A stretch of DNA of 37,823 bases from a virus. Lineage: Duplodnaviria > Heunggongvirae > Uroviricota > Caudoviricetes. Shown here in pieces: positions 1 through 774 of the stretch. The notes under the pieces were generated by a model. The model worked only from the letters and a program-made list of their open reading frames with translations. It was not told the origin of the DNA and did no database searches. Location: the IMG/VR virus record IMGVR_UViG_2917855067_000005. One strand, 5' to 3'. Position numbers and translations under genes: made by a program. How positions within the stretch are numbered: the first letter of the stretch is position 1; each line of letters starts with the position of its first letter.

Positions 1-774
1 ATGGATATTACTGAGTTTCCCTCTGGAGTAATTGAGCACCTTGGCTGGTATGTATACCGATTGATTGATCCGAGGGACGGAAGTACCTTCTATGTAGGGA
101 AAGGAAAAGATAATCGCGTATTTGCCCATATGCGCGGTAAAGTAGCAGCGGATGATAATGGCGAGTTGCTTAGTAACAAGCTAAAGCAAATTAGAGAAAT
201 AAAATTAGCCGGGCTTGAAGTTATCCATGTCATTCATCGACACGGTATAACTAATGAAAAGACAGCTTATGAGGTTGAAGCCGCGCTTATAGATGCATAC
301 CCAGGGTTAACGAATATCATGAATGGGGCTGGCAGCAATGAATTCGGCGCCGCACATGTCAAAGAGTTGATAGCAACATATCAACCCGAAACCATAACAT
401 TTCATCATAAAGCATTAATGATTTCCGTTAACAGAAGTGCAAAAGATTCAGAGCTTTATGATGCGGTTCGATTTAGCTGGCGCATTAATGTCTCGCGCGC
501 CAGTAAAGCAGAAGTCATTCTTGCTACTGTAAGGGGGATCGTTCGAGGAGTTTTCATTGCTGATAAATGGCTAAAATCAACGCGTGAACATTTTCCTACG
601 ATGAAATACTGGGGCGAAGACCCTGACTTTGAGGCAACACAAGGTTCTCGCTATGGTTTTGAAGGTCGAGAAGCTCCACCTGAAATAGCAAACCTTTATC
701 TTGGGAAAAAAATACCAGATGAATTAAGAAAAAAAGGAGCTATGTCTCCAGTTCGTTACTCACCTAATTTTTGA
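1..774 (+). CDS. GIY-YIG nuclease-domain protein (N-terminal GIY-YIG motif, uncharacterised C-terminal domain)
   Basis: Intact 257-aa ORF; N-terminus reads [30 protein letters not shown], matching the GIY...YVGKG...R...H core of GIY-YIG nucleases; convergent with the invertase gene. Confidence 0.7.

Follow-up and report, generated by a model that had tools for sequence, protein, structure and literature searches.

What is a GIY-YIG nuclease gene doing at the distal end of a prophage, beside the invertase that switches its tail fibers? The stretch of DNA that raises this question (the window; 37,823 nt, IMG/VR record IMGVR_UViG_2917855067_000005) begins on the first base of the open reading frame (ORF) of that gene, for which a first-pass annotation had proposed a restriction-like function or, alternatively, a homing endonuclease. 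We conclude with high confidence that the gene codes for the type IV restriction endonuclease CMoRE (PD-T4-3), which acts as a single protein, and that this allele rides as cargo at the attR end of an icd-integrated prophage of the SfV/e14 type.

The matches that carry this assignment span the protein. The PADLOC model for PD-T4-3 (PDLC04031) aligned over positions 1 to 256 of 256 (E = 2.4e-137), and a sequence search of the PDB aligned 9U75 (E = 5.2e-167) and 9U7U (E = 7.4e-145) along their entire length. When an AlphaFold model was searched with Foldseek, these entries came up again, under the description “5hmC specific restriction endonuclease ... PD-T4-3” (5hmC, 5-hydroxymethylcytosine), and the PHROGs match was to phrog_5356 (5.9e-137), a family of unknown function. 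Between the window protein and translated ECs_0285 of Escherichia coli O157:H7 Sakai, 11 of 257 residues differ (96% identity), which bears out the restriction-like function first proposed; identity to the APEC O1 enzyme (9U7U) is ~82%. Of 5426 complete E. coli genomes, 838 (15%) carry a member of the family.

CMoRE is already known and mechanistically characterized, and the window gene is one more allele of it. PD-T4-3 came from a functional selection (Vassallo et al. 2022; PMC9519451), and the passage of PMC12923530 that cites this work names ECOR68 as the source strain. Liu et al. (Nat Commun 2026; PMC12923530), who renamed the system CMoRE, studied proteins from O157:H7, APEC O1, and Klebsiella. 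Plating of T2, T4, and T6 was cut ~10^5-fold with no abortive infection, the defense being obtained with native upstream regions. DNA containing 5hmC or glucosyl-5hmC (5ghmC) was bound and cleaved, DNA containing C or 5-methylcytosine was not, and T4(C) escaped CMoRE while T4(hmC) did not. Cleavage (CN11/N9G, leaving 2-nt 3' overhangs) required two modified sites and depended on Mg2+ or Mn2+, with no strict sequence requirement. Crystals revealed an N-terminal “GIYxY-YIG” domain (Y17, Y19, and Y31), a disordered linker without electron density in both structures, and a C-terminal sensor, in which Y127's main-chain oxygen touches the 5-hydroxyl group. Mutation of Y17, Y19, Y31, or the active site of the O157 enzyme abolished defense and cleavage, and V92S/L96S disrupted the functional tetramer. 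In a 15-residue acidic loop regarded as a safety catch, replacement of four consecutive acidic residues by alanine (4A) raised activity, allowed ordinary DNA to be cut, and was toxic. PD-T4-3 was also active against Tevenvirinae in its native host NILS69 (bioRxiv 2024.12.20.629700). A Capnocytophaga member of the family, PD-T4-3Capno, 48% identical, showed modification-dependent cleavage of T4 DNA, lost defense when its active site was mutated, and at high enzyme concentration also cut Mu DNA, which contains carbamoylmethyl-adenine (Rodriguez-Rodriguez et al. 2025; PMC12366544). The 5hmC/5ghmC-dependent cleavage and T-even defense are known only from the O157:H7, APEC O1, Klebsiella, ECOR68, NILS69, and Capnocytophaga homologues.

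The window allele keeps every residue mutated or named in PMC12923530 (Y17, Y19, Y31, R80, V92, L96, and Y127). Its motif reads G15-W-Y17-V-Y19-R-L ... F30-Y31-V-G33-K-G35, and the motif columns, together with R39 (nt 115 to 117), E93 (nt 277 to 279), and N105 (nt 313 to 315, just past the nuclease domain), were invariant across sets of 31 and 50 homologues; on this invariance we assign R39 and E93 as the putative catalytic Arg and Glu. The family-invariant H43 is kept as well. At the tetramer interface, judged from sequence only, R80, V92, and L96 are conserved and residues 20 to 30 are identical to those of the O157 enzyme. Pfam family PF22945 (LEM-3-like GIY-YIG) covers residues 28 to 110 with a score over its cutoff (1.8e-14), and the classic PF01541 falls under its own (0.0088). 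An NCBIfam scan of the full protein gave no match, and residues ~116 to 257 (~140 residues) matched nothing in Pfam or NCBIfam. The first-pass annotation, which had recognized the N-terminal motif and been unable to place the rest of the protein, was right on both counts. Confidence in the AlphaFold model was low at residues 50 to 53, within the loop.

By extension from the 96%-identical enzyme, the window protein would assemble as a dimer of dimers. The C-terminal domains of this tetramer would bind 5hmC or 5ghmC, with two modified cytosines ~21 bp apart (CN11/N9G) being required. The GIYxY-YIG domains would then cleave between the modified cytosines, with Mg2+ or Mn2+, leaving the same 2-nt 3' overhangs. 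Because the acidic loop over the active site would repel ordinary DNA, host DNA would be spared, and incoming T-even phage DNA would be destroyed directly and nonabortively, protecting both lysogen and prophage.

To place the gene in its genomic setting, we read the DNA upstream of the window on contig L003 (GCA_004745295.1; Escherichia sp. E3356), which is identical to the window from base 10001. Immediately 5' of the ATG, a 686-bp spacer with 33% GC is followed by 165 bp that code for the C-terminal 54 residues of isocitrate dehydrogenase. This fragment is the displaced icd 3' end (icdC), marking attR as it does for e14 in K-12, where the order is ymfQ-stfP-tfaP-tfaE-stfE'-pinE-mcrA-[e14 end]-icdC-iraM-ymgL-ycgX-bluR-bluF. 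On contig L004, which encodes the same protein, the host genes past the junction are the same as in K-12. With the displaced icd 3' end ~690 bp before the ATG, CMoRE is placed within the prophage as the final gene, in the mcrA slot. The first-pass annotation had put e14 mcrA in this position after pin, and the K-12 order agrees; only the orientation differs, mcrA being codirectional with pinE and the CMoRE gene being convergent with pin (the two stop codons, at 774 and 832, face each other), as had also been noted. Because the gene retains its catalytic residues and belongs to the prophage, not to the host chromosome, the original picture of a prophage-borne nuclease stands. A literature search for the e14 pinE-mcrA slot as a defense hotspot found nothing relevant.

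The system consists of this one gene: upstream there is only the AT-rich spacer and then attR/icdC, downstream the convergent pin, and there is no co-oriented partner. GC content is 42% in the gene, 33% in the upstream spacer, and 50% in the whole window, and the low GC is a cargo signature. K-12 e14 diverges from the locus right after the pinE stop, which sets one edge of the cargo cassette. In prophages integrated at thrW (Sakai Sp1 and that of strain LCP30S3_I5), the gene adjoins pinE again, and the DNA common to icd-type and thrW-type loci upstream of the ATG extends for only ~100 bp. By these two limits, the cassette is ~930 bp long. In the thrW-type loci of Sakai and H1, a search upstream of the gene for a thrW-derived att repeat found no exact match of at least 12 nt and no tRNA. 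A tRNA T-arm-like sequence, GGGGGATTTGAACCCCC, does occur in thrW-type loci (Sakai, contig L002 at ~11780 to 11800, ~200 bp upstream of ECs_0285); it does not come from thrW, drew no ARAGORN call, and could be what is left of the att site of some other element. On the other side of attR, the E3356 chromosomal flank (L003, 1 to 9320) is ~87% identical to E. coli, and in its icdC-pdeG interval YebC/TACO1-family, CxxCxxCC, and DUF302 genes and a 113-amino-acid ORF replace the K-12 iraM-bluR-bluF-ymgABC genes.

Several observations weigh against reading the window gene simply as a working copy of the O157 enzyme. Inspection of the upstream DNA, which found the prophage boundary, did not yield a promoter: no coding-strand sigma-70 promoter reached the scan threshold in the 700 bp upstream (nor did the scan, which also covered the gene, find a terminator), and a weak match, TTGTGA-17-TAACAT (−61 to −33), falling within the ~100 bp common to both locus types, may be the best candidate. 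Nine of the 11 substitutions relative to O157 (G37D, E47K, A51D, D53N, D54G, D55E, R68K, M83I, D85N, D205G, and S215G) fall in the nuclease domain, and G37D is two residues before R39. The loop, G-E-V-A-A-A-D-D-D-D-L-L in O157:H7, is of equal length and acidic in the window allele, but its acidic run is broken, with D-D-N-G-E (D51, D52, and E55) and K47 in its place. Three net negative charges are lost (E47K and DDDD to DNGE, partly offset by A51D), giving residues 46 to 57 a net charge of −2 versus −5 in O157; this is the lowest value (tied) among 31 homologues, which range from −2 to −6, and the loop is the least acidic of the sampled enterobacterial homologues. With these charges gone, the activity, stringency, or toxicity of the window allele could differ from that of O157, and the function proposed for this exact allele is carried over from close homologues. 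At the nucleotide level, the gene is a mosaic of a diverged nuclease half and a near-identical sensor half, because 36 of the 40 differences from the O157 allele fall in nt 21 to 354 and only 4 after nt 354; this clustering suggests that alleles have recombined where the two domains join.

Taken at their strongest, these changes would describe a decayed or altered allele, with G37D and the reduced acidity of the loop either inactivating the nuclease or loosening its discrimination of self from non-self, so that the gene is silent, leaky, or mildly toxic. The concentration of substitutions in the nuclease domain and loop, a loop charge at the bottom of the natural range, the toxicity of the O157 4A mutant and its cutting of ordinary DNA, and the frameshifts in the neighboring pin and int all point in that direction. 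However, the ORF is intact, and the codon differences from the O157 allele are synonymous in 28 cases and nonsynonymous in 11. The same protein sequence was present on all 8 contigs read, which come from several independent assemblies and several sequencing runs. At position 37, other family members also have A, N, or D, other natural homologues have a loop charge of −2 or −3, and the frameshifts in the neighbors are all +1 homopolymer insertions that are missing from an otherwise identical assembly and are probably artifacts. We therefore regard decay as improbable and infer that the window allele encodes a functional enzyme, the stringency of which might differ from that of the O157 allele; the low acidity of its loop could be natural variation that relaxes autoinhibition.

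Two further functions have to be set against restriction. A free-standing GIY-YIG homing endonuclease, spreading by cutting empty alleles, was the alternative named by the first-pass annotation, and it is echoed by a weak PHROG match to the “homing endonuclease” family phrog_314 (E = 8.4e-4) and by full-length jumbo-phage homologues (38 to 44% identity) annotated “putative homing nuclease.” Those labels are automatic annotations, however, and Pfam scans of the whole protein and of 21 C-terminal domains found no NUMOD, IENR1, or helix-turn-helix modules. In close homologues the C-terminal domain is experimentally a modified-base sensor, cleavage has no strict sequence requirement, and defense has been directly demonstrated, and the gene occupies an att-adjacent cargo slot at two integration sites (icd and thrW), not a position in or beside a conserved target gene. 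Lacking DNA-binding modules and having instead a sensor domain and a cargo slot, the gene is very unlikely to be of this kind, and we rejected the idea. A host-type DNA-repair or structure-specific nuclease is scarcely credible: the LEM-3_GIY-YIG family is indeed the best Pfam model, and UvrC GIY-YIG domains were the Foldseek matches next after the CMoRE entries for the N-terminal domain, but the gene is inside the prophage between pin and attR, is patchily distributed (15% of E. coli genomes), and has the low GC typical of cargo, and its close homologues cleave in a modification-dependent way with no action on ordinary DNA. This reading, too, was rejected on prophage location, patchy presence, and the biochemistry of the homologues, which leaves CMoRE as the preferred identity.

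Comparison with known systems bears on how CMoRE should be classed. The O157:H7 (ECs_0285; 9U75 and 9U8D) and APEC O1 (9U7U and 9U7Z) enzymes have the same length and two-domain architecture as the window protein and share all of its catalytic, oligomerization, and ligand-contact residues, and their loci have the neighbor pinE and the ~100 bp of upstream DNA in common with the window locus; the integration site is icd in the cryptic-clade Escherichia that carries the window and thrW (Sp1) in O157. As with CMoRE, the gene for EcoKMcrA of K-12 e14 comes last in an icd-integrated prophage, between pinE and the e14/icdC junction, and this cargo gene encodes a one-protein, modification-dependent restriction enzyme of type IV. 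Unlike CMoRE, EcoKMcrA has an HNH nuclease, a different reader, and a methylated cytosine target, and there is no sequence similarity between the two; in the window protein Pfam detected only GIY-YIG families and no HNH/McrA reader, and only the slot is shared. The N-terminal domain of UvrC and LEM-3 (ANKLE1) have the catalytic fold and the Tyr, Arg, Glu, and Asn in common with CMoRE, which differs from them in its extra tyrosine (GIYxY), 15-residue acidic insertion, sensor domain, and defense role. Several type IV enzymes with PUA-like readers (VcaM4I/TspA15I, EVE-HNH; the YTH-/EVE-like N terminus of McrB; MspJI and PvuRts1I/AbaSI, SRA-like) resemble CMoRE in fusing a modified-base reader to a nonspecific nuclease, in cleaving at a fixed distance, and in needing two modified sites.

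The nearest structural neighbors of the CMoRE sensor are these same PUA-like readers. Liu et al. found no homologue of the sensor in their sequence and structure searches and called it a distinct fold (PMC12923530). The sensor has invariant aromatic residues (Y153, W160, W190, F198, and Y233), and free 5hm-dCTP was seen at an edge site. The first-pass annotation had suggested profile and structure searches of the C-terminal domain. Apart from CMoRE itself, only noise was returned when PDB sequences were searched with a sensor profile and when 21 C-terminal domains were scanned with Pfam (E up to 10). With Foldseek, the 4 CMoRE entries were followed by 46 matches, all of them PUA-like (E = 0.08 to 1; TM score, 0.3 to 0.44), a resemblance to EVE/YTH/ASCH domains that is weak but very consistent. 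Whether the sensor is truly a PUA-like relative is, in our estimate, close to an even call. Searched alone against 1.8 billion cluster representatives, the sensor reached 1005 clusters at E up to 0.001. Among the proteins surveyed for architecture (P0231, P0135, P0133, P0149, P0180, P0202, P0233, P0241, P0264, and P0041), it was joined to a McrB-like AAA_5 domain in P0231 and followed an HSDR_N domain (a PD-(D/E)XK nuclease domain) in P0135 and P0133; it stood at the N terminus of proteins of 630 to 720 amino acids with no other recognizable domain; and in P0041 a GIY-YIG domain preceded two tandem sensors. A combined reading, in which the sensor is a highly diverged PUA-like (EVE/YTH/ASCH-type) reader and apparent mobile module and the loop of the window allele is possibly relaxed in autoinhibition, seems to us tentative, with a chance just short of half. 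The full-length homologues mentioned above are in lytic jumbo phages (records H76 to H92), including Serratia Moabite and 2050HW, Pectobacterium vB_ParM-25, Pantoea Survivor, Pseudomonas OBP, and Klebsiella N1M2, where they may serve phage-versus-phage competition.

Table 1. Coordinates of the CMoRE gene, its predicted parts, and the adjoining features in the window
Feature	Coordinates	Strand	Basis and remarks
CMoRE/PD-T4-3 ORF	1..774	+	257 amino acids; ATG at base 1, TGA stop at 772-774
GIY-YIG nuclease domain at the N terminus	1..309	+	Pfam PF22945; GIYxY-YIG motif at amino acids 15-35 (nt 43-105)
Alpha2-alpha3 “safety-catch” loop	136..171	+	Amino acids 46-57; alignment and charge count
Flexible interdomain linker	310..345	+	Amino acids 104-115; AlphaFold2 per-residue confidence (pLDDT) <50 at residues 104-116
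C-terminal 5hmC/5ghmC-sensing domain	346..771	+	Amino acids 116-257; includes Y127 (nt 379-381)
Spacer between CMoRE and pin stop codons	775..831	.	57 bp; no intrinsic terminator predicted
pin (pinE-type serine invertase), tail-fiber inversion switch	832..1387	-	Reads as frameshifted; alignment with the intact pin of L004 and K-12 pinE
Invertible tail-fiber C-terminus and tail-fiber-assembly cassettes, both orientations	1414..2820	.	ORFs and homologous loci; gp53-like C-terminal domain, Caudo_TAP on both strands

The remainder of the window is consistent with a complete prophage (Table 1 gives the features next to CMoRE). The neighbor named as an invertase is indeed pin, but in the window it reads as two ORFs (832..1179 and 1220..1423) owing to one extra base in a T7 run (A7 on the coding strand) at 1240 to 1246. 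Compared with the short-read assembly L005, the window showed 0 mismatches in 10.7 kb, the sole in-window differences being +1 homopolymer insertions at 1246, 3769, and 4207; comparison with L009 added +1 insertions at 31627 and 34970 (run 34966 to 34970). Together these five insertions split pin, a ymfQ/gp48-like gene, the end of the baseplate J gene, and the integrase gene (insertion at 34970). Because L005 and L009 are otherwise identical or near-identical and lack them, the insertions are most simply explained as assembly errors and not as prophage decay, and for that reason the prophage is probably intact. From ~3287 on, the structural module is 97% identical to those of the Shigella phages SfII, SfI, SfIV, and SfV, which are without the fiber tip, pin, and CMoRE region.

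At the other prophage end, related loci carry, in order, icd, an 848-amino-acid protein, a 623-amino-acid DUF2357 protein, int, and xis, and the DUF2357 start codon closes the window. The two genes between icd and int (window 35952 to 37823, minus strand, and the 848-amino-acid gene outside the window at L010 5445 to 7991) form a cassette in the slot of e14 ymfD/ymfE/lit. The 848-amino-acid protein matched the PADLOC candidate PDC-M26A (E = 1.3e-16) and, marginally, LmuB; the DUF2357 protein had no PADLOC or PDB match. The two may possibly be an uncharacterized defense pair at this other cargo end. Within the window, two co-oriented ORFs at 23992 to 26194 (plus strand) run opposite to their neighbors and encode a 344-amino-acid NA37 (YejK-like) nucleoid-associated protein and a 395-amino-acid protein with no Pfam or PADLOC match; they may be another moron cassette. 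PADLOC scans of the odd ORFs of the window (DUF2357, NA37, and those of 395, 239, and 144 amino acids) gave nothing significant.

For annotation, these results mean that “LEM-3-like GIY-YIG domain protein” and “hypothetical” are the wrong names for the gene, which should read type IV restriction endonuclease CMoRE/PD-T4-3. What may be new is limited to the sensor's possible PUA-like ancestry and modularity, which, if true, would make CMoRE a member of the general “PUA reader plus nuclease” class of type IV enzymes, and the low-charge variant of the autoinhibitory loop. For the prophages themselves, the locus indicates that the last slot before attR in e14/SfV-type elements holds interchangeable, unrelated modification-dependent restriction enzymes, the HNH enzyme McrA in K-12 and the GIY-YIG enzyme CMoRE here.
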